In this document: piece by piece, positions 6,980 to 62,314 of the stretch | Layout: each line of letters starts with the position of its first letter | Position numbering within the stretch: the stretch's first letter is position 1 | Assembly (NCBI GenBank): GCA_014729675.1 | Contig: WJJM01000039.1 | Coordinates: forward strand, 1,479 to 65,478 | Source of the DNA: Candidatus Woesearchaeota archaeon | GTDB lineage: Archaea; Nanobdellota; Nanobdellia; Woesearchaeales; WJKL01 | DNA: 64,000 bases | Direction: 5' to 3' | Position numbers and translations under genes: made by a program | The notes under the pieces: model-generated | The model's database searches: none | What the model was told of the DNA's origin: nothing | What the model saw: only the letters and a program-made list of their open reading frames with translations

Positions 6980-8035
6980 TTATTTATTCTTTTTTGAAGG
7001 TTTCTTTTTCATCCATCTTTTGAACAATGACAAGATGATGAAGAATGTTACAGCAAACCATATTATCCTTGCATTAGAGTGGAAAAGCTGTATGCCCAAT
7101 CCTGGGAAAAATATCCATACAAGGAAAAATAAAAATACCCTCATAGAGTCAAGCAAAAAATGAAGTAAAAATCCCATAAAAAAACCAAGAGCATATCTTA
7201 TCCTGTTAAGCTCCTTATAATTTACAACTCCATACAATAGCCAAAAGAAGATAAATGAGTAAAACATAACTTTTCCACTGCATCCAAGACTGTGATTTAC
7301 TGCTTGAGTCTTGTATCTTAGAGTGAACCCTAGATATTCAACAGTCATAGTCATCGAAGTGAATATTTTGCTTAGAAAAAAAGCTCCTAATTTTGCAGAA
7401 TGTACAGCAAGAAGAGCAAAGTAATAGCTGATTGTATGCATTATAGTCCCTTCTGATCTCACATGTTCAAAATAGTTGATAAATAAAAAAACATAGGAAG
7501 ATGCAAGTGCAAGAGATATAAGGATCTCTTTATACAGTTTTTTTGCAAGTTTCTTTATATCCTGTATAGAAAAGAGCAACAATACAGCAGATGATACATA
7601 GATGAATCCTGCCAAGTGCCAAAGCAAACTTGCCAATATCAGATTTTCCTGGGCAAAGGTTGTTGATTTTCCCAAAAATATCGTAAACCAAAATATAAAT
7701 GCATACGAGATTGCATGAAAAGGAATATATCTAAGATTGATCACATCTTTTTCCGATCTGAAATTTTTGATCTTTTTAAATCCTATCAGTATGAATATTA
7801 GCGGAAGATAAAAAAGAAAATCCTGGGTCAATGATCCTCTTATCAAAGGAGAAGCCTGATAAACAAGGGCAAATCCGCCCCTATTTGCAGTATCTACTCG
7901 AACTCCAAGAAAAAAAGCTTCTAATAGTGTAAGAATAATAAAAAATGTAATTTTTGAAAGGAGCAGATTATCTTTAATCTTTGCATATATTTTGTCTTTA
8001 AAAGAGATAATCTCTTTTGGCGCATATCTTTTCAA
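6980..8035 (-). CDS. Polytopic membrane protein, candidate archaeosortase (exosortase/archaeosortase family) for the PEF-CTERM substrates
   Basis: 8 or more predicted TM helices; CSG motif (NHSLGCSGKV) and a downstream Arg (DSMRVF) spaced like the Cys/Arg active-site pair of exosortase-family transpeptidases; convergent with and 6 nt from the giant PEF-CTERM gene. Confidence 0.4.
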   Translation of the reverse strand: MKRYAPKEIISFKDKIYAKIKDNLLLSKITFFIILTLLEAFFLGVRVDTANRGGFALVYQASPLIRGSLTQDFLFYLPLIFILIGFKKIKNFRSEKDVINLRYIPFHAISYAFIFWFTIFLGKSTTFAQENLILASLLWHLAGFIYVSSAVLLLFSIQDIKKLAKKLYKEILISLALASSYVFLFINYFEHVRSEGTIMHTISYYFALLAVHSAKLGAFFLSKIFTSMTMTVEYLGFTLRYKTQAVNHSLGCSGKVMFYSFIFFWLLYGVVNYKELNRIRYALGFFMGFLLHFLLDSMRVFLFFLVWIFFPGLGIQLFHSNARIIWFAVTFFIILSLFKRWMKKKPSKKNK

Positions 8036-8352: not shown

Positions 8353-10113
8353 ATGGAAGCAAAAGAGCTTGTAAAGAAATATCTGGAATTTTTCAAGAGC
8401 AAAGAGCATGCAATGATAGAGTCAGCTTCACTGATCCCAGAGCATGATCCTACTGTTCTTTTTACAACTGCAGGGATGCATCCTTTAGTGCCTTTCCTGA
8501 TGGGAGAGCCTCATCCTTTGGGAAAACGACTGACTGATGTGCAAAAATGCATAAGGACAGGAGATATAGATGAAGTAGGGGATGCTTCTCATCTTACTTT
8601 TTTTGAGATGCTTGGAAACTGGAGCTTGGGGGATTATTTCAAGAAAGAAGCTATTGAGTGGAGTTTTGAGTTTCTGACAGAAGTTCTTGGATTTGATGCT
8701 GAAAAATTAAGTGTTACATGCTTTGCAGGAGATGATGATGCTCCAAGGGATGACGAATCTGCAAAGATATGGAAATCATTAGGGATTCCTGAAGACAGGA
8801 TATATTTTTTGCCTAAGGAAGATAATTGGTGGGGGCCTGCAGGAGAAACAGGGCCTTGCGGACCTGACACTGAGATGTTCATCGATACAGGCAAAGAAAA
8901 GTGCAGCCCAGAGTGCAGGCCTGGATGCGGCTGCGGAAAGTATTTTGAAGTTTGGAATGATGTTTTTATGCAGTATAATAAGACAAAAGAGGGCAAATAT
9001 GAACAGCTTAAGCAGAAGAATGTTGATACAGGCATGGGTGTAGAAAGGACTATAGCAATGATGCAGGGAAAAGAGACAGTATATGGGACCGGGCTTTTCA
9101 AGCCCATGATAGATCAGCTGAAAAAGCTTGCAGGTATTGAGAATTTTATCCAGGACCAGACAAAAAGCGTAAGAGTGATATGCGATCATATGCGAGCAGC
9201 TACGTTTATCCTTGGGGATGAAAGAGGAGCTGCTCCTTCAAATGTTGACCAGGGCTATATCTTAAGAAGATTTATCAGAAGAGCGATAAGGCATGGAAAA
9301 CTTTTAGGGATAGAAGGGGATCTGTGCAGGCCTTTGGCAAAGATAGTCATTAACCTGTATAAGGAAAGATATCCTGAGCTTGATAAGAAGACAGAATTTA
9401 TAATGGACGAGTTCCTGAAAGAAGAAAAAAAATTCAGGGAAACTTTAGAGAAAGGGTTGAAGGAATTTGGAAAGATCGCAGACAAAGACATAAGCGGAGA
9501 GGATGCTTTTTTGCTTTTCCAGTCTTATGGTTTTCCTCTTGAGATTACAAAAGAACTAGCCAATGAGAAAGGGATAAAGGTTGACGAAGAAGGATTTGAC
9601 AAAGAGTTTAAGAAGCATCAGGAATTAAGCAGAAAAGGAGCTGAGCAGAGATTCAAAGGAGGATTGTCTGAAGCTTCAGACATGACTGCAAAACTGCATA
9701 CAGCAACCCATCTTCTTGGAGAGGCTTTAAGAAAAGTTCTTGGAGATCCTGATATAAAACAGAAGGGAAGCAATATAACACCTGAAAGGCTTCGTTATGA
9801 TTTTAACTTTGATAGAAAGCTGACTGATGAGGAGAAGAAAGCAGTCGAGGATGAGGTCAACAAGCAGATAGAAGCTGGACTGGATGTCAGGAAAGAAGAG
9901 ATGAAGCTGCAGGATGCGCTGGATGCAGGAGCTCAGTCTGAGTTCGGAGCAAAATATCCTGAGAAGGTATGGGTCTACAGTGTTGGAGATTATTCCAAAG
10001 AGATATGCATGGGACCTCATGTTTCAAACACTTCTGAACTTGGTCATTTCAGGATAAAGAAAGAAGAATCAAGTTCTGCAGGTGTTAGGAGAATCAAAGC
10101 TGTTCTGGAATAG
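8353..10113 (+). CDS. alaS: Alanyl-tRNA synthetase, unusually short form (586 aa) with catalytic core and editing domain, no C-Ala domain
   Basis: N-terminal PTVLFTTAGM...RTGDIDEVGD..HLTFFEMLGNWSLGDYFK class-II AlaRS core; editing-domain His/Cys signature HTATHLL...CMGPHV near C-terminus. Confidence 0.8.
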   Translation: MEAKELVKKYLEFFKSKEHAMIESASLIPEHDPTVLFTTAGMHPLVPFLMGEPHPLGKRLTDVQKCIRTGDIDEVGDASHLTFFEMLGNWSLGDYFKKEAIEWSFEFLTEVLGFDAEKLSVTCFAGDDDAPRDDESAKIWKSLGIPEDRIYFLPKEDNWWGPAGETGPCGPDTEMFIDTGKEKCSPECRPGCGCGKYFEVWNDVFMQYNKTKEGKYEQLKQKNVDTGMGVERTIAMMQGKETVYGTGLFKPMIDQLKKLAGIENFIQDQTKSVRVICDHMRAATFILGDERGAAPSNVDQGYILRRFIRRAIRHGKLLGIEGDLCRPLAKIVINLYKERYPELDKKTEFIMDEFLKEEKKFRETLEKGLKEFGKIADKDISGEDAFLLFQSYGFPLEITKELANEKGIKVDEEGFDKEFKKHQELSRKGAEQRFKGGLSEASDMTAKLHTATHLLGEALRKVLGDPDIKQKGSNITPERLRYDFNFDRKLTDEEKKAVEDEVNKQIEAGLDVRKEEMKLQDALDAGAQSEFGAKYPEKVWVYSVGDYSKEICMGPHVSNTSELGHFRIKKEESSSAGVRRIKAVLE

Positions 10114-10158
10114 GTTTTGTATTTTCTGAGATTTATCTATTTAAAAAACAATAACCTC

Positions 10159-10352
10159 TAGGTCAACAAGTTGCCCTGCGATAATTATTCAAAAATAATA
10201 ATAATCCATAACGCTCGCTTTGCTCGATACTATAGCGCTGAGACAGAGGCGTTGAGTTCTGGCTTCGCTTAAGCGAATTGAGCACTCAGATTGGCTCGTA
10301 CTGAGACTGTGCACGAACAGCGAAGCTGTGAGTGCCATAGGTGGGATTGATT
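10159..10352 (+). repeat. Copy A of dispersed GC-rich structured element family (taggtcaaca...gataacgctcgctttgctcg...gagacagaggcgttgagttctgg...gagactgtgcacga...gtgagtgccata.gtgggattga)
   Basis: Conserved blocks shared with copies at 18070, 52965, 61990 and 41285(-); TATA-like tttaaaaaa about 12 nt upstream; internal hairpin ACAGCgaaGCTGT; intergenic after alaS. Confidence 0.6.
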
Positions 10353-10595
10353 TGTATTTTGATTAAGGAATATTTTCTAATAAAGTTATTTGCCATGGAT
10401 TGAGATCTTTAAAATCCTGATCGCAAGGCAGGCTTTAAAAAATATATCCAATCTGGCTTAGGGATAGGATCAATAATCTTTAATCTTTTATCAAGAAAAT
10501 CATGAACTAAGTTATTAAAATTTAAATATATCTTATTATCTTTATCTTTGCATCAAAACTAAATATTTTTAAAGCTGAGTGTTTTGCTTTTTATC

Positions 10596-16349: not shown

Positions 16350-17489
16350 GGATTATTGGAAGAATTCTTTGTTTAAATAATCTTTCAGGGCGTTTGAACA
16401 GTGGTATTACCTGACTAACTCTTTTAGAAGCTTAAAACAGTCTTTTGTGTCTTCCAAGACATAATGATAATCTTTTGATATAAGGTTGAACAATGAAAGC
16501 ACCAGAAGTAGAAAGATGATGTGCATCGCTATTATTGTGTTATTTATGAGTGGCATTATATCAGCAATATGATTATGATAATTACTGTAAGGAAAAAGGG
16601 CGCTGCAGATATAGCTGCTTTGGCCGGCTTTTCCTTCAGTTTAGGTATTATTCGTCTATCGTATGCCATCATCTTAATAATAAAAAGAGGGAAAGGTCCT
16701 GTTTAAAAACCTTTCCTCAAAAATAAAAATCAACTGTTGTTTGTCTTGCAAGCGAGAGTCTAAGATAGCCCGAAAATTTTCTCGCAGACAGGCATCGCCT
16801 CGTCTGCTTCCATCAGCAGGCTGAGTCTGCGGTTTTGCAGGGCCATACTTCAGGAACTTGCTCGACTTTTGACAGAAGAGGAAATTGTCCTTTGCTTCAA
16901 GGGTTAAATTTCTCTTCAGTGATGCGCAGTCTGACAGCACGCAGCACCTTATCTTCTGTTCAGTCTTGATTTTTTTGTTAGAGAAAAAGGGAACAAAAGT
17001 TCCCTCTCCCTAAACACCTCTTTTTCCCGAAGGCATGTGATAGAGTGTGCAAGATTCCAAGCCTTGCTTGGAATCCAATGTGATGTAATGAGGATGAATA
17101 AAGGCTCCCTTTTGTGTGAGGGGTGTGTTTTAGAATTAAGGTGGGAGCCTTTAGTTGATCATGAAGAGCAGGTAAACGATTCCCCGGATGGATTGAATTT
17201 CAGGTTGCGCTTGTCCATGACATATCTTACCTGGACAAGTATATTGTCTTTCAAAAACTCTTCCTGGAAATGAAGACATTTTGGGGATATATCGTTTATT
17301 TTCATCTTATCACCTTAATTATCTAATATACCTACTAGTATATAAATGTACCTATTTTGTATACTGGTGTATAGATATGTTTTTTAGGCAATTTTAAGAA
17401 TTTTAGCATTATAGGGCCTGAAGTGTTGAAATTCTGTTATGAGTACTTTAAAGTACTAAACTGTAAAAAATCAAGAATTTTGGTAAAAA

Positions 17490-17960: not shown

Positions 17961-18069
17961 TCGTGTTTTTTAAAGATGAGGTTTTATTGACATTATATAG
18001 TTTAAAGTTTAATCTTTAAGTTATAAATTAGTCAGCTGCTTGTGATGATAGTTTAAAAATAATTATATT

Positions 18070-18292
18070 TAGGTCAACAAATTTGTTTTGTAGATTATTA
18101 AAAAGTTCAATCCTTACTGATAACGCTCACTGCGTTCGCTAACTCTACCTCTGAAACAGATGCGTTGAGTTCTAAATTATCTTAACTGGATGCTTCAGTT
18201 GATTAGAATCAAAGCCAGAAATCAGCTTAGCTGCGGAGAGAGACTGTGCACGACCATTGAAGTTGTGAGTGTCATCAATGAGATTGAAGGAT
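18070..18292 (+). repeat. Copy B of dispersed GC-rich structured element family
   Basis: taggtcaaca... gataacgctcac... gcgttgagttct... gagactgtgcacga... gtgagtg.cat... gattgaagg; TATA-like tttaaaaata about 10 nt upstream; 5-prime ttcaatcc and 3-prime ggattgaa-type ends complementary. Confidence 0.55.
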
Positions 18293-18425
18293 TTTAAACT
18301 TAAGAAAATAAATAATGTATCATATCTAGGATTGAATCTTAGTTTGCTTTTTGAGAATAATAAAAAATCCTGATCTTAAAGCAGACTTTCTCAAAAAACA
18401 ATATATGTCTTTAGATTTAAAATAT

Positions 18426-23499: not shown

Positions 23500-23625
23500 A
23501 AAATAGCCCTGCTGTTTGAACCTGAGGGTTAACACCCTACAGCTACCTGTTGTGGGTTTCGCAGGTGAAAAGTTAGATTCGCTTCGCTCATCTAGAAACC
23601 TGCTCAAGCCCACCAAACAAAGATA
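23500..23625 (-). repeat. tRNA-Gln-flanking conserved element, copy 1 (about 125 nt, immediately 3-prime of tRNA-Gln(TTG) on the minus strand)
   Basis: 97% identical to 24653..24776; proximal end mimics the tRNA T-arm/acceptor 3-prime half (GGTTCAAACAGCAGGGCT vs GGTTCAAATCCGGGCAGGGCT). Confidence 0.55.
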
Positions 23626-23646
23626 ATAAATAAAGAATAAACAAAT

Positions 23647-23740
23647 AGCCCTGCCCGGATTTGAACCGAGGTCCCAGGACCCAAAATCCTGGATGATTGG
23701 CCATTGTGCACAGCTTAAAGCTGTTCTACACTACAGGGCT
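23647..23740 (-). tRNA. tRNA-Gln (anticodon TTG) with a noncanonical 21-nt intron in the D-loop
   Basis: Manual fold: acceptor AGCCCTG/CAGGGCT, anticodon stem CAGGA/TCCTG with loop TTTTGGG, T-arm CTCGG-TTCAAAT-CCGGG. Relative to the paralog at 24794, AACAGCTTTAAGCTGTGCACA is inserted after GTGTAG. Confidence 0.6.
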
Positions 23741-24652: not shown

Positions 24653-24776
24653 AAAATAGCCCTGCTGTTTGAACCTGAGGGTTAACACCCTACAGATACC
24701 TGTTGTGGGTTTCGCAGGTGAAAAGTTAGATTCGCTTCGCTCATCTAGAAACCTGCTCAAGCCCACTAAACAAAGA
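24653..24776 (-). repeat. tRNA-Gln-flanking conserved element, copy 2
   Basis: Near-identical to 23500..23625; lies 3-prime of tRNA-Gln(CTG). Confidence 0.55.
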
Positions 24777-24793
24777 CAAAGAATAAAGAAAAT

Positions 24794-39018: not shown

Positions 39019-39828
39019 GGGTTAAGTTAGGAGATGGAGTTTTTAAAGGTTGCTGATTGACTTATATAATACAGATTTAGTATACATTTTAGCGACCAAT
39101 TTTTTTGTAGTGTTCAAAAAGTTATGTTTTAAACGAATAATGCTTAAAAAGCCTCCTTACATTTATAGGAGAATGGAAGAACATAAGGTTTTTATTTCAA
39201 ATAAGCTTCAAAAAAGGCTATCTGATTAGGATTATGTCAATAAGATTGCAAAAAAGCTGAAAAAGAACCTTATCAAGGAGATTCAGTTTATAAGAGATTT
39301 TTGAGGGAAAATAGATTTGAAGGGAGAAGAATTTACTGGCATATATATATAAGAATTTTTGATGGTTTTGATTGTGGGAGAGTCTGGAAAAAAGATTAAC
39401 AGGCCACAATAGATGAAATTAAAAAATTACTGCATGTATTTATGGAAGAAGCAGAAAAAATACATAAGAATTTTTAAGCAATTCTTTTAATATTTCCAGC
39501 CTTTAAATCAGCTAGAGAATCTGCTATCTGTTTCAATAAATCATCGTCTATTTTTTCTTTTGCTTTCAGCTCTTTATACTCTTTTTCAGAAATACAGATT
39601 TGTTTTTTTTCATTATAAAGCAACCTCAATAAATTATAAATTTTTATACCTTATAAAGATTTCTATTTTGTAGTTTAATTCTACTAAAATTTCTCAACAA
39701 TTCCCCTCTTTTTTGAATAATTAAAATTAGAATTATCATCAAAAAGTTTATTTAACATGTATAATGCAGAATAGAAATATTTATATATGAGTTTTAATAT
39801 TTAAAATAATATTGATTAAAGTCGGTTT

Positions 39829-39900
39829 TTTGGCGGAAACCGAGTTTATATGGCGTGTGTGTTTAAAATTTGGCGATTTCAAACACAAAATGTTTGGCGT
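39829..39900. promoter_or_regulatory. Four TGGCG boxes at about 20-bp spacing in the 1-kb AT-rich region upstream of ftsZ
   Basis: tTGGCGgaaac / aTGGCGtgtgt / tTGGCGatttc / tTGGCGtttt at 39831, 39851, 39871, 39895. Confidence 0.3.
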
Positions 39901-40005
39901 TTTCTCAAGAGGTAGTAAGATAAACCTATATATAAATGTTTATTTACTCAGAAGTATATTTTCGAGTATATAAATTAAAAAAATAAAAAAAGGGGGAATG
40001 AAAAA

Positions 40006-41076: not shown

Positions 41077-41117
41077 ATATAATCTATACTTTTTAATTTT
41101 CTTTTTTAGGGATTTCT

Positions 41118-41165
41118 TGCCTTCATTTTAACTCCCTAACCACCCCCAAACCCAAATGAAGGCAA
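41118..41165 (+). terminator. Perfect 12-bp inverted repeat (ttgccttcattt / aaatgaaggcaa) with 24-nt loop downstream of ftsZ, followed by T-run
   Basis: Seen directly; a T7 run follows about 30 nt later. Confidence 0.35.
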
Positions 41166-41284
41166 ATACTTGGTCTCTTCCTGCTCTGCAGGGGGAGATT
41201 TTTTTATTTTATTCATTAGATGATTCTATATTGTTTTGAAAATCTCTAAATTCTAAGATTTAATATTCCTAAAAATCAAAAAAG

Positions 41285-41400
41285 ATTTCAATCCTATCGA
41301 TGGCACTTACAAGCTTCGCTTGTTCGTGCACAGCCTCAATACGATATAAGCTGAGTTCTGGCTCTGTTGTAGAAATAAGAGCTCTCTGTGACATTAGCAT
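41285..41400 (-). repeat. Copy E (minus orientation, 5-prime-shortened) of dispersed GC-rich element family
   Basis: rc reads ...agccagaactcagc..ggctgtgcacgaacaagcgaagcttgtaagtgccatcgataggattgaaatc; closest to copy D. Confidence 0.5.
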
Positions 41401-41421
41401 AATGGATGAAATTAAAGAATA

Positions 41422-41958
41422 TTATCTCTTAAAGACTATCTTTTTCTGGCCAGAATATAACCCCATCTTTGTCATGGCTTCAAATTGGTCCTTGCTTACA
41501 ATTAAAGGGGAGACTATGAAATCGTATTTTTCTCTTATCTCTCCGCAGATCTCTTTTATCTTACCATTATCTATATTTTCTCCAATCAGCATGAGATTGG
41601 CTCTTTGGTTGGACTCTTCTCCATGCAGTACAACTGCTTTTATCTCATATATGTTCCTTATCTTATCTATGAATAATTGCAGGACTTGCTTGTCTTTCTT
41701 TAGCATCTCATAGAGAAATCCTGTCCTTTCTGTATGCCTGAACTTATAGAATTTAGAGTTTTTTCTGACTATAGGATCTATGATCTCAAAATCCATGAGC
41801 TTTACAAGAATGCGGTATGTTGAAGCTGGTGAGACCTTTGCTGCCTTGGAGATCTCTCTCAGATACATGCCTTCTTCAGAATTATCATTAGCTAATATCT
41901 GCAGGATCGACAAAATCTTCTGATCAAACAATTGTTGGAGAAGCTCTATATCCTTCAT
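41422..41958 (-). CDS. Winged-helix transcriptional regulator (TrmB/MarR-like) with C-terminal domain of unknown function
   Basis: LREISKAAKVSPASTYRILVKLMDFEII HTH. Confidence 0.45.
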   Translation of the reverse strand: MKDIELLQQLFDQKILSILQILANDNSEEGMYLREISKAAKVSPASTYRILVKLMDFEIIDPIVRKNSKFYKFRHTERTGFLYEMLKKDKQVLQLFIDKIRNIYEIKAVVLHGEESNQRANLMLIGENIDNGKIKEICGEIREKYDFIVSPLIVSKDQFEAMTKMGLYSGQKKIVFKR

Positions 41959-50985: not shown

Positions 50986-52557
50986 TTAAACTTTCAAACC
51001 TTTCTGGCCTTTTCTTTTCAATGGGGAAGCTATCTCTACTTTCTGGCCAACCTGTTCTTTTATCTTGATGGCTGTCTTTTTTCCTACTATCTGTGAGAGC
51101 TTTAGCGGGTCTGATCTCTTGACATCTCTTATGGTCTTTATCCTGTTGCTGAAGAGTTTTCTTGCCCTTACCCTGCCTATGCCTTTAAGCTTTAATAAAG
51201 GAAGCAGTTCTTCTTTTGCTCCGTGCTTGAGCCTAAGCCTTAGCTTTGTGAGTTCTTTTAGGATGTCTTTCTTTTTTATCATCCTTGCAAATTCTGTTGA
51301 GCAGTAGAAAAGCCAGTCAGCAAGGTTAAGCTTTATCCTTGTCTCTCCAGGCCTTATCGAGTATTTTTCAAGGATGGCCTCTTCATCTATCTCGTTTATC
51401 CAGTCTTTGAAGAACAATGCTGTCTTTACAGAGTTAAGGAACTCCACATATTCTTCGTCATACATAGAAGGTTCTTCCTGGAGCATAGAATCAGAATATT
51501 TTACAAGAGCTTCTTCTATATCCTCGTATTCTTTTTTCCTTACTCTTAATAGAGGCCTCATCTCTAAGGTTGAGGCGATCATCTGCAGGAAGGAAAGCTC
51601 TGAGATCTCTTTTTTTTCAGATGCTTTTAATGCCTGGATAATATGGTTGGCTGTGTAAGGATCTATATATAGTTCTGCAACCCTTTTCCCTATTGGCGTA
51701 GCTTTGTATTCATGGTTGAACATGTCTGCTGCTGACTGGAACTCATTTTCCTCTTCAGTCGAGGTTATGAATCTATAGTCTTTCAACAGTTTCAGCATCT
51801 TTTCTATGATTGAAGTTAGTTTAGTCATGTCCTTGTACTGGAATGCCCAGAATGTTTTTGAGAAAAAATCTATTATCTGTTTCTTGTCCTTTACAAATCC
51901 TGCTGCTATCAGTGAAAGAAGATAGGTTCTTAAGACAGGCTCGACTGCAAGTTTGGAGTATACTTCTTCCGGCTCTCCTTTTACATATCTTTCATAAATC
52001 TCATCTTTTATAGGCTCAGTTGAAGCTATGGCTATAGCCTGGCCTGTTATGTCATATTTCGGGCGGCCAGCGCGGCCAGCCATCTGAAGATATTCCAATG
52101 TAGGGATCCAATCAAGACCTCTGTGTCCGAATCTTCTTAGGTCTTTCATTATTGCTCTATAGGCCGGCAAGTCGAGGCCAAAACTAAGTGTCGGCGTGGC
52201 ACAGATAGTTTTTATCAACCCTTTCCTGAAGCTGTCTTCTATAATCTCTTTCTGCTTATGGACAAGGCCTGCATGATGAAAAGCTATTCCTTTTTTTAGG
52301 CAGAAAGCAAGACGTTTGCACTGCTTTGTAGGTGTTGATAATGTGTTTAATGCCTTTTCTGAAAGCTCTTCATATTCTTTTGTTTCTTTTTCTGACAATG
52401 ATCTTTGTTTTCCTATTGCTTTTGCTATATCTTCTGCTGTCTTCTCTGCTGAGCGTTTTGTGTTTGCAAATACAATAGCCTGTTTTAGCTTGTTTATCGT
52501 GTCAAGAACTAAGTCTATTGTCTGGTCTCCTGTCTCTGAAGCTATTGTCTCATGCAT
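50986..52557 (-). pseudogene. Hel308/Ski2-like DNA helicase lacking the N-terminal RecA1 (Walker A/DEAD) domain: truncated gene or split gene
   Basis: Begins at RecA2 domain (TPTLSFGLDLPAYRAIM...QMAGRAGRPKYD motif VI), then winged-helix, ratchet and HhH (LKGIGRVRARKL). Upstream in-frame sequence hits a stop after about 40 non-helicase codons; region upstream is the 47-bp tandem array. Confidence 0.5.
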
Positions 52558-52706
52558 ATCTGTTGAGAAAGAGAGAAGGTATTTAAAATTGTTTATTATT
52601 GGCTGTTTGATTAGTATGTTGATATCTAACCTGCTTTTGGTTATTTTTAAGTCAGGAAATTTTTTGTATAGAATAATTCAATCTTAGTCTCTAAGTCAGG
52701 AAAACC

Positions 52707-52847
52707 TGCCCTGCGATCAGGATTTTCAATCCTAATCTTTAGGTCAACATAGTTGCCCTGCGATCAGGATTTTCAATCCTAATCTTTAGGTCAACATAGT
52801 TGCCCTGCGATCAGGATTTTCAATCCTAATCTTTAGGTCAACATAGT
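52707..52847 (+). repeat. Perfect tandem array, 3 x 47 bp (tgccctgcgatcaggattttcaatcctaatctttaggtcaacatagt), representing the 5-prime module of the dispersed element family
   Basis: Seen directly; unit contains taggtcaaca.agttgccctgcgat shared with copy A 5-prime end; a partial fourth unit precedes. Confidence 0.8.
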
Positions 52848-52964
52848 ACATGTGATAACATTTTAAAATAAAATTCAATATTTTTCTTCTAAGTCAGCAT
52901 AGCTACATTGCAATTATTATTACCAATTAAAGTTTTCATATGTAATAATCTAAAAATCCCTATC

Positions 52965-53142
52965 GATAACGCTCGCTTTGCTCGCTAACCTTACCACTGA
53001 GACAGAGGCGTTAAGTTCTGGTTTAGATTAAAAGGACTGAGCACTCGACTTAAATCGGAGAGAGACTGTGCACGAGCAGGTTTCCAGACGAGTGAAACGA
53101 GTCTGACTTTTCACCTACGAGTGCCACAAATGGGATTGAAAG
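52965..53142 (+). repeat. Copy C core of dispersed GC-rich structured element family
   Basis: gataacgctcgctttgctcg...gagacagaggcgttaagttctgg...gagactgtgcacga...hairpin CAGAC-11nt-GTCTG...gagtgccacaaatgggattgaaag. Confidence 0.6.
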
Positions 53143-53269
53143 TTCTAATTCTGCTTTTTATCAAAAAATAAAATATGCCAAAAATAATTTACTATGGGCA
53201 GGATTTCAATAATAGATTAAAGCCTGACTTAGAAATAGAATTAAAAACTTTTAAAATCAAGATAAAAAA

Positions 53270-61866: not shown

Positions 61867-61989
61867 GCTATATGTTTCTTTTTTGTCTTTTAATTATTTT
61901 GCTGACTATCAGATGATGGTTACAGATTGTTTGTTTAATTTTAAGGTAGGGGTTTCGATGATTCAACTTATTTTATTTGCATTACAAAA

Positions 61990-62158
61990 ATGATTCAATC
62001 TTAACCTATAAGCGGAAATTTTTCAAATTTCCGCAATATAGCGCGGAAGCAGAGCCGTAGAGTCTAAATAAGTTATCAAGCCAGAGCTAAACTTAAATCG
62101 TACTGGGGCTGTGCGCGAGCAGATGAAGCCTACGAGTGCCATAGATAGGATTGAAAGG
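61990..62158 (+). repeat. Copy D of dispersed GC-rich element family (5-prime block divergent)
   Basis: ...agccagagct..aaatcgtactggggctgtgcgcgagcag...cgagtgccatagataggattgaaagg; strong upstream hairpin GCGGAAATTT-TTCA-AATTTCCGC. Confidence 0.5.
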
Positions 62159-62314
62159 AAAATCTTGATCTACCTTTTTATTCAACAAAAATCAGCATCT
62201 GCCATGGACGGGATTGGAATTTAATCTGCTTAAGAAGGATATTTAACTATGGATCATGCTGTGCTCAATCTTTGAAAATGCCTAAATATAATGGGAAAAA
62301 TCTCTTTAAATATT

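Follow-up and report, generated by a model that had tools for sequence, protein, structure and literature searches.

Did a repeat element lying directly in front of an archaeal DNA-repair helicase gene cost that helicase its N-terminal half? The question is raised by a 64 kb stretch of contig WJJM01000039.1 from a Candidatus Woesearchaeota archaeon (assembly GCA_014729675.1; hereinafter the window, meaning the whole stretch that was analysed), in which a Hel308/Hjm-like gene without a RecA1 domain has, upstream of its start, a spacer with a perfect tandem array of 47-bp units. An earlier reading of this DNA (the original prediction) took the array for the amplified 5′ module of a dispersed element, of which this is copy C, and suggested that insertion or expansion had disrupted the helicase, a split gene being its alternative. 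Using sequence analysis only, of the window and of related loci, we find that the element came in front of an already short helicase gene, just beyond its promoter, and that the co-location of helicase and repeat is coincidental. Copy C itself probably belongs to an intergenic repeat that is modular, non-coding and specific to its lineage, that is closest in kind to miniature inverted-repeat transposable elements (MITEs) and BOX-type elements and that met a helicase already devoid of RecA1.

A Short Hel308 Conserved in Woesearchaeota

The helicase displays the Pfam domains Helicase_C, HTH_61, Helicase_dom4_arc and HHH_5 and no DEAD domain, and its alignment to P. furiosus Hjm (2ZJ2) begins only at residue 228 and runs to residue 708 of 720 (E = 2e-88), so that the original prediction was right in placing its start at RecA2. 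As in the Hel308/Hjm structures (PDB 2ZJ2, 2VA8 and 2P6R), the RecA2, winged-helix, ratchet and helix-hairpin-helix (HhH) domains are present and motifs V and VI are intact; unlike them, the window protein is without the first ~215 residues. Since these hold RecA1 with its Walker A and DExH motifs, the helicase is predicted to be unable to hydrolyse ATP on its own.

This short form is widely shared. All 120 homologues listed (58-89% identity, from Woesearchaeota and Nanoarchaeota) are 487-578 aa long, mostly ~515-525 aa, and the DEAD domain is found in 0/120. When the window protein is aligned with seven homologues, the start methionine is invariant, as are motifs V (TPTL..G.D.P) and VI (QM.GRAGRP; QMAGRAGRP). 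Nor does a frameshift conceal a contiguous RecA1: a six-frame scan with a search for Walker A and DExH motifs found none upstream of the helicase in any frame. A tblastn search of the DNA examined, with an approximate Hel308 N-terminus as the query, likewise returned no RecA1, and the only window ORFs (open reading frames) of more than 100 aa with a Walker A motif are an XPD-like helicase and a secretion ATPase. The 300-aa gene upstream of the helicase at the related locus L010 was considered as a RecA1 partner and rejected, as it codes for a membrane/lectin-like protein.

Orthologous loci establish the order of events. Loci L001-L004 and L034 all belong to one relative, the metagenome-assembled genome (MAG) GCA_964464955.1. 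At L001, which is 82% identical at the nucleotide level, the same neighbours surround the same short helicase gene, and the match with the window runs to 52601 and ends there, thereby conserving the TATA-like box and the rest of the 44 nt in front of the ATG; the rest of the spacer holds a different repeat, with neither the core nor the 47-mer of the family under study. At L006 (65% amino acid identity), which is syntenic over more than 15 kb, the spacer in front of the short helicase measures only 37 bp and shows the TATA/ATG arrangement seen in the window. Thus, the contiguous intact helicase that a disruption would lead one to look for at such loci is absent from both. As the short gene and its promoter occur in these element-free relatives, the helicase was short long before the element or the array appeared. 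In the window, the element starts ~45-85 nt upstream of the helicase ORF.

The short protein is probably an anciently split Hel308, or a stand-alone C-terminal Hel308, that would need RecA1 in trans. Split genes are on record in Nanoarchaeota, where they comprise a large helicase-related gene (NEQ003/NEQ409) and alanyl-tRNA synthetase (AlaRS; NEQ211/NEQ547) (PMC3655853). The original prediction's alternative of a split gene with its N-terminal half elsewhere is compatible with this precedent. The likeness lies in a superfamily-2 helicase without one RecA half, encoded by a gene that stands by itself under a promoter of its own, in a small-genome DPANN archaeon. The cases differ in that the helicase here is Hel308/Hjm-like and not Lhr, and in that its short form is kept across many Woesearchaeota; that it is "split" rather than "truncated and repurposed" is what we infer.

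A Perfect Array within an Older Series of Modules

Tandem Repeats Finder describes the array of copy C with 100% matches and no indels over 3.0 copies of period 47, and a repeat search (family D1) likewise finds its three 47-mers 100% identical. A 26-nt stretch of the unit, TGCCCTGCGATCAGGATTTTCAATCC, occurs three times in the window against an expectation of zero. Each unit further holds a small palindrome, AGGATT-TTC-AATCCT, and folds with z = -2.2 on the plus and z = -3.5 on the minus strand. With a module profile, nhmmer places full left modules in register at 52688-52733, 52735-52780 and 52782-52827, whereas of the fourth module only the head (52830-52847) is preserved; the array of three perfect units with a partial fourth accordingly stands as originally described. 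Degenerate modules flank the perfect block on either side (~52646-52686 and 52888-52916), which shows that the perfect units form part of an older series of six or seven modules that has otherwise diverged.

In outline, the module can be written as TCTAAGTCAGG...CCTGCCCTGCGATCAGGATTTTCAATCC. The module designated u1 joins a variant head bearing TCTAAGTCAGG (52690-52700), which is the left arm of a terminal inverted pair, to a tail identical to that of the amplified unit. The outermost module, u0, is recognized from the direct repeat D3 (52648-52659 / 52692-52703) and a weak nhmmer module match (52646-52660), and the decayed modules on the other side from the nhmmer match mentioned above (E = 1e-4) and the repeats D2 and D4. 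The array is separated from the core (starting at ~52962) as the original prediction had it, by 114 nt rather than by about 117 nt. Of the three sites that it gave for the 9-mer CTAAGTCAG, that at 52889 is confirmed and the second lies at 52691, while the supposed site at 52649 is in fact TTAAGTCAG, at 52647, and an inverted copy at 53224 on the minus strand had been missed. The exact 9-mer thus has three sites in 64 kb, all in this spacer, the first two on the plus strand. The minus-strand site, the only one of its orientation in the window, falls within an inverted module at the right end of the element, where it belongs to a perfect 11-nt inverted pair, 52690-52700 / 53223-53233. As it pairs with the head of u1, the 9-mer is best understood as the module head, which marks inverted module copies at both ends of the element. 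The right end is tied to the left module by two inverted pairs, I7 (11 nt, 100%) and I8 (12 nt, 92%). On its 3′ side, the array is succeeded by the non-coding core, after which the 3′ end of a convergent gene is reached.

Because the neighbouring modules and the other family copies are clearly diverged, the perfect identity over 141 nt points to either a very recent gain of two units by duplication or a uniformity kept by ongoing homogenization; the recent expansion originally proposed is hence reasonable. We posit that slipped-strand mispairing or unequal recombination between adjacent modules might have added two units to an older array very recently, for which the 26-nt identical tail of adjacent modules and the small palindrome would offer a suitable substrate.

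A Family of Modular Intergenic Repeats

Self-comparison and searches with a core profile recover five full copies of the element in the window (Table 1), about one per 13 kb, which bears out the earlier view of the array as the amplified 5′ module of a real repeat family. All are intergenic, lie in both orientations relative to the neighbouring genes, span ~170-650 bp and contain no ORF of at least 60 aa on either strand. Their general anatomy comprises one to several left modules of ~47 nt, a GC-rich core ending in a GA-flanked hairpin and GGATTGAA, optional 3′ modules of ~55 nt and an inverted left module. The left modules vary in number, from ~6-7 in copy C to one recognizable in A, weaker ones in B and D, and none in E; inverted modules terminate the right ends of A, B and C. 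Otherwise the window is ordinary chromosome, coding for AlaRS, S15, FtsZ, DNA ligase, purA, IMPDH and pilus genes.

Table 1. Coordinates in the window of the helicase gene, the parts of copy C and the other copies of the repeat family.
Feature	Position	Strand	Remarks
Hel308/Hjm-like gene	50986..52557	-	523 aa; RecA2, winged helix, ratchet and HhH, without RecA1; neighbour, not part of the element
Helicase conserved 5′ region and promoter	52558..52601	-	TATA-like GGTATTTAAAATTG at 52578-52591, 21-34 nt upstream of the ATG
Copy C, degenerate outer left module u0	52640..52686	+	shares TAAGTCAGGAAA with the next module
Copy C, left module u1	52687..52733	+	nhmmer match 52688-52733, E = 1.4e-13
Copy C, perfect tandem array	52707..52847	+	3.0 x 47-bp, unit TGCCCTGCGATCAGGATTTTCAATCCTAATCTTTAGGTCAACATAGT
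Copy C, decayed further modules	52848..52927	+	diverged tail of fourth unit, then degenerate fifth unit with CTAAGTCAG at 52889
Copy C, family core	52962..53140	+	nhmmer core profile E = 2.9e-35; ends in GGGATTGAAAG (53132-53142)
Copy C, conserved 3′ hairpin	53070..53124	+	GCAC-GA-(stem-loop)-GA-GUGC
Copy C, 43-nt hairpin extension	53076..53118	+	copy C only; blastn 79-86% identity over 43-63 nt to the tRNA-Gln elements
Copy C, inverted, partly decayed module (right terminal inverted repeat)	53196..53233	-	GGGCAGGATTTC ... CCTGACTTAGA
Copy A	10156..10461	+	left module 10156-10190; core 10204-10351; one 3′ module; right end with inverted module 10409-10436 and CTAAGCCAG at 10453-10461
Copy B	18068..18390	+	degenerate left module; core 18116-18288; right end with second GGATTGAA at 18329 and inverted module 18364-18390
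Copy D	61985..62170	+	one diverged left module; core 62012-62155; inverted-module fragment abutting core end
Copy E	41250..41432	-	core 41287-41429; no recognizable left modules

Beyond the window the family is narrowly distributed. A search of 185,579 species genomes with the 3′ signature of the core recovers three further copies, all in MAG GCA_964464955.1 at non-syntenic sites; they lie within ~20 kb and differ in their flanking genes. In these copies diverged tandem left modules directly abut the core, and an inverted module stands at the end. Their ~55-nt units consist of the last 24 nt of the core (GAGTGCCAT..GGATTGAAAT) plus an AT-rich piece of ~31 nt, and reach 2.2-3.1 tandem copies at L002 and L003, both of which also have several diverged left modules. 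A profile search found the family absent from ~150 kb of nine other Woesearchaeota loci, the core signature has zero matches in viral contigs and zero in JGI metagenomes, and the module signature has zero viral matches. Twenty metagenome matches to the module signature were discarded as chance, being limited to the pattern itself and located mostly in ORFs or high-GC DNA. Neither the window nor the surroundings of the relative's copies encode a transposase, integrase, TnpB, Cas protein or reverse transcriptase.

The orthologous sites of copies C and E vary in occupancy. At the E site (L034), near-identical flanks enclose a shortened, decayed remnant, while L006 has no element there; the remnant implies that the family is older than the divergence of the two close genomes and that its copies decay by deletion. 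At the C site, two tandem units of a second dispersed repeat (L001, 7584-7893) fill the helicase spacer exactly at the place of copy C. The unit of this repeat is ~115-130 nt long and includes GGTAAAATTTTCAATTCCCAAAATTTGC, and another copy is found upstream of FtsZ (L034, 2380-2500). Asked whether the filling at L001 is a deleted derivative of the family, we obtained a weak similarity for the L034 unit (z ~4.7) and a non-significant one for the L001 units.

Several observations concern the surroundings of these copies. Directly in front of copy A, AlaRS (8353-10113, plus strand; 586 aa) ends just past the SAD/editing motif, without C-Ala. That it might be a second disrupted gene was rejected, since 586-590 aa is the norm among the Woesearchaeota homologues listed; some relatives (L010) have an AlaRS of 838 aa. 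Beside one of the relative's element copies, an ORF for methionyl-tRNA synthetase (L004, 2134-2973, minus strand) has 279 aa and covers profile positions 237-390 of 391, with only the C-terminal half of the catalytic domain next to the anticodon-binding domain; a further split gene, a frameshift or an effect of ORF calling could explain this. L002 further contains a tandem repeat (7469-7607; period 53, 2.6 copies, 91% matches) that is unrelated to the family. The relative itself is labelled "uncultured Methanosarcinales archaeon", which is probably a mis-classification: its helicase and FtsZ are 89% and 95% identical to those of the window, and the named entries of the helicase match list, which it tops, are all Woesearchaeota or Nanoarchaeota.

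The Core and Its 3′ Hairpin

The cores of the family are GC islands: that of copy C has 46.9% GC, and all of them fall at 38-51%, close to the tRNA genes of the window, as compared to an intergenic background of 32.7%. They measure ~145-180 nt in the window copies and are longer in those of the relative MAG. Over eight copies, 91.7% of the cells of the 3′ hairpin pair, as compared to 15-49% in slid controls; five of its ten pairs show changes on both sides, both one-sided changes result in G.U on the plus strand, and its covariation score was reached by 0 of 500 shuffles. RNAalifold detects little else in the whole core. In copy C alone the hairpin is extended by 43 nt, the sole relatives of which are two elements behind tRNA-Gln genes.

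These two tRNA-Gln-linked elements (23506-23640 and 24659-24790, both on the minus strand) are 96% identical, ~130 nt long and situated ~30 nt downstream of two intron-containing tRNA-Gln genes, whose anticodons, read by eye, are UUG and CUG. Each holds a nested GA-flanked hairpin homologous to the copy C insert and ends in a tRNA-3′-end-like GGTTCAAACAGCAGGGCTA that corresponds to the acceptor end of tRNA-Gln(UUG); either the relics of an integration site or a co-transcribed small RNA could account for them. The tRNA-Gln(UUG) gene, the start of which is mis-called by ARAGORN and which scores below threshold in Rfam, seems to have a D-loop intron of ~22 nt with a hairpin ACAGC-TTTAA-GCTGTG (23709-23724, minus strand). 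The stem of the latter is that of the family core hairpin, a pattern with two matches in the window as against 0.05 expected.

This raises an alternative in which the cores are genuine small-RNA genes, constituting a new structured non-coding RNA family of this Woesearchaeal lineage that spread by duplication or mobility, with the 47-nt and 55-nt modules as functional parts (promoter/regulatory sites or processed units). We regard it as unlikely. It would account for GC islands like those of tRNA genes on a 33% GC background, for a covarying 3′ hairpin with its wobble pairs on the plus strand, for a core conserved better than the ends, and for the related hairpin behind both tRNA-Gln genes and the recurrence of the stem string in the tRNA-Gln intron. 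However, there is no match to an Rfam family: with Rfam 15 only tRNAs reach the gathering score in the window, and permissive scans of copy C and the L003 copy gave chance-level matches. Moreover, the plus-strand minimum free energy of whole cores has z of only -1.7 to 0.0, the fold of the 5′ domain differs from copy to copy, and no promoter-like box recurs at a fixed distance. The decay of copies by deletion and the confinement to two genomes also speak against RNA genes, while the inverted end modules and the variable insertion sites favour a mobile repeat.

As the core is the most conserved part of the element, it may still function as RNA or in the form of a structured single strand. The covarying hairpin is plausibly the part under selection, and could be either a recognition structure for a mobilizing protein or part of a transcript. 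We accord a slim chance to the core being an undescribed mobile structured-RNA gene of the Woesearchaeal lineage, whose 47-nt and 55-nt modules would be functional units and not mere transposon ends; as part of such a gene, the tandem-GA hairpin could serve as a protein- or processing-recognition element.

Affinities of the Repeat Family

The reading that we favour, a modular mobile repeat, has two classes of known elements as its nearest counterparts. BOX elements of Streptococcus pneumoniae are built as boxA-boxB(n)-boxC, and BIME/REP clusters and Correia elements are similar modular intergenic repeats. Like BOX, the Woesearchaeal elements are short, non-coding, dispersed and intergenic, have end modules that are mutually complementary, encode no transposase of their own, and include a module whose tandem number varies from copy to copy. 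They differ from BOX in their archaeal host and in having no sequence relation to it, in a larger GC-rich core (~145-180 nt) that has a covarying hairpin and is conserved better than the ends, and in that tandem amplification can affect the left (47-nt) as well as the right (55-nt) modules.

MITEs, which have been described in Sulfolobus and other archaea, have simple ends in the form of terminal inverted repeats of 15-30 bp. The present family shares with them a size of 170-650 bp without an ORF, multiple dispersed copies, inverted termini in A, B and C, a presence or absence that varies among related genomes (here at the C and E sites) and decay by deletion. In contrast to typical MITEs, no target-site duplication or parent insertion sequence was identified, and the ends are composite, repeatable modules of ~45 nt, with two of the five copies having no clear ends. 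Membership in the MITE class is only partly supported. By this reading, a protein encoded elsewhere would have brought the element in, be it through transposition or through recombination between copies.

A number of observations weigh against this interpretation. Copies D and E have no clear inverted ends, D retaining only a fragment and E none. Neither an autonomous parent nor a transposase with matching ends was seen in the 64 kb analysed from this genome and the ~38 kb from the relative, and the flanks of A, B and C, the exact termini of which are uncertain, yield no consistent target-site duplication. Nor is the close relative cleanly empty at the C and E sites, where other or decayed sequence blurs the exact insertion boundaries. 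The core rather than the ends is best conserved, an uncommon trait in a plain MITE that tends to favour a function as RNA or as structure, yet whole-core folds are no more stable than those of shuffles (z of -1.7 to +0.6 on either strand). The count of three units in the perfect 141-bp array comes from a short-read metagenome assembly alone. Finally, the RecA1 partner of the helicase was found neither in the window nor adjacent to the gene in seven neighbourhoods.

Further Alternatives

Perfect repeats of 141 bp are about as long as one short read, and assemblers can mis-size them. An assembly artefact, in which the copy number of the array was mis-inferred in a short-read MAG, would fit an array length of this order, but we consider it improbable in view of the diverged and hence safely assembled multi-module arrays in the relative's copies and on both sides of the perfect block. 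Owing to these, the architecture is real even if the exact count of three is not.

That the array serves RNA-based defence or addiction, as a CRISPR-like mini-array or a type III antitoxin (ToxI-like) array, is very improbable. The 47-nt unit does fall within the range of type III antitoxin repeats, and GGATTGAAAG / TTTCAATCC presumably resembles the ends of archaeal CRISPR repeats. Yet the units are identical over their full length, so that there are no unique spacers, and in the relative's 55-nt units the "spacers" are homologous as well; there are neither cas genes nor a toxin-candidate ORF downstream of the array, and outside the ends of family members the modules do not occur. Guide RNAs of the TnpB/IscB omega-RNA or tracrRNA type were also considered and rejected, there being no adjacent nuclease gene and the sequences past GGATTGAA being homologous among copies.

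The proposal from which we started, in which a Hel308 gene of full length was cut short when the element inserted or the array expanded, has adjacency alone in its favour and is practically untenable, being refuted by the DEAD-less short form in 120 of the 120 homologues listed, down to 58% identity, with the same start methionine in the seven aligned, by the shared short gene and promoter of the element-free relatives L001 and L006, and by a spacer with no RecA1 remnant in any frame.

Other Features of the Window

The region of FtsZ and copy E holds two further features. Between the two lies a segment (41101-41245) that is near-identical in the close relative, where it is conserved above the neighbouring coding sequence, and is recognizable in the 65%-amino-acid relatives L006 and L007. 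It contains a 12-bp stem (TTGCCTTCATTT/AAATGAAGGCAA) enclosing a G-rich loop and has no convincing Rfam match; it may be regarded as a candidate for an RNA gene that escaped annotation, or for a regulatory hairpin. The spacer upstream of FtsZ (39019-40005) is unusually long and AT-rich, with 987 bp at 26% GC as compared to 429 bp in the close relative. Elsewhere, a stretch of 1.1 kb (16350-17489) without an ORF of at least 110 aa contains a 55% GC island near 16783, has no Rfam match even at E <= 1, and looks like decayed coding sequence.

Implications

A full-text literature search retrieved no publication that deals with Hel308, or with repeat elements of this kind, in Woesearchaeota. What the locus presents is a new repeat family of a known kind beside a conserved split or short helicase, and the tempting story of a mobile element breaking a DNA-repair helicase is thereby removed. 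In its place stands the conservation, in Woesearchaeota and their relatives, of a RecA1-less Hel308 with intact ATP-contacting motifs, which points to a helicase in two pieces or to a C-terminal half that has taken on a new role. The repeats indicate that DPANN genomes, usually considered streamlined, can hold dense families of modular non-coding repeats, the modules of which expand and decay quickly. Such modular repeats would be useful as markers of strain-level dynamics and may supply new RNA structures.

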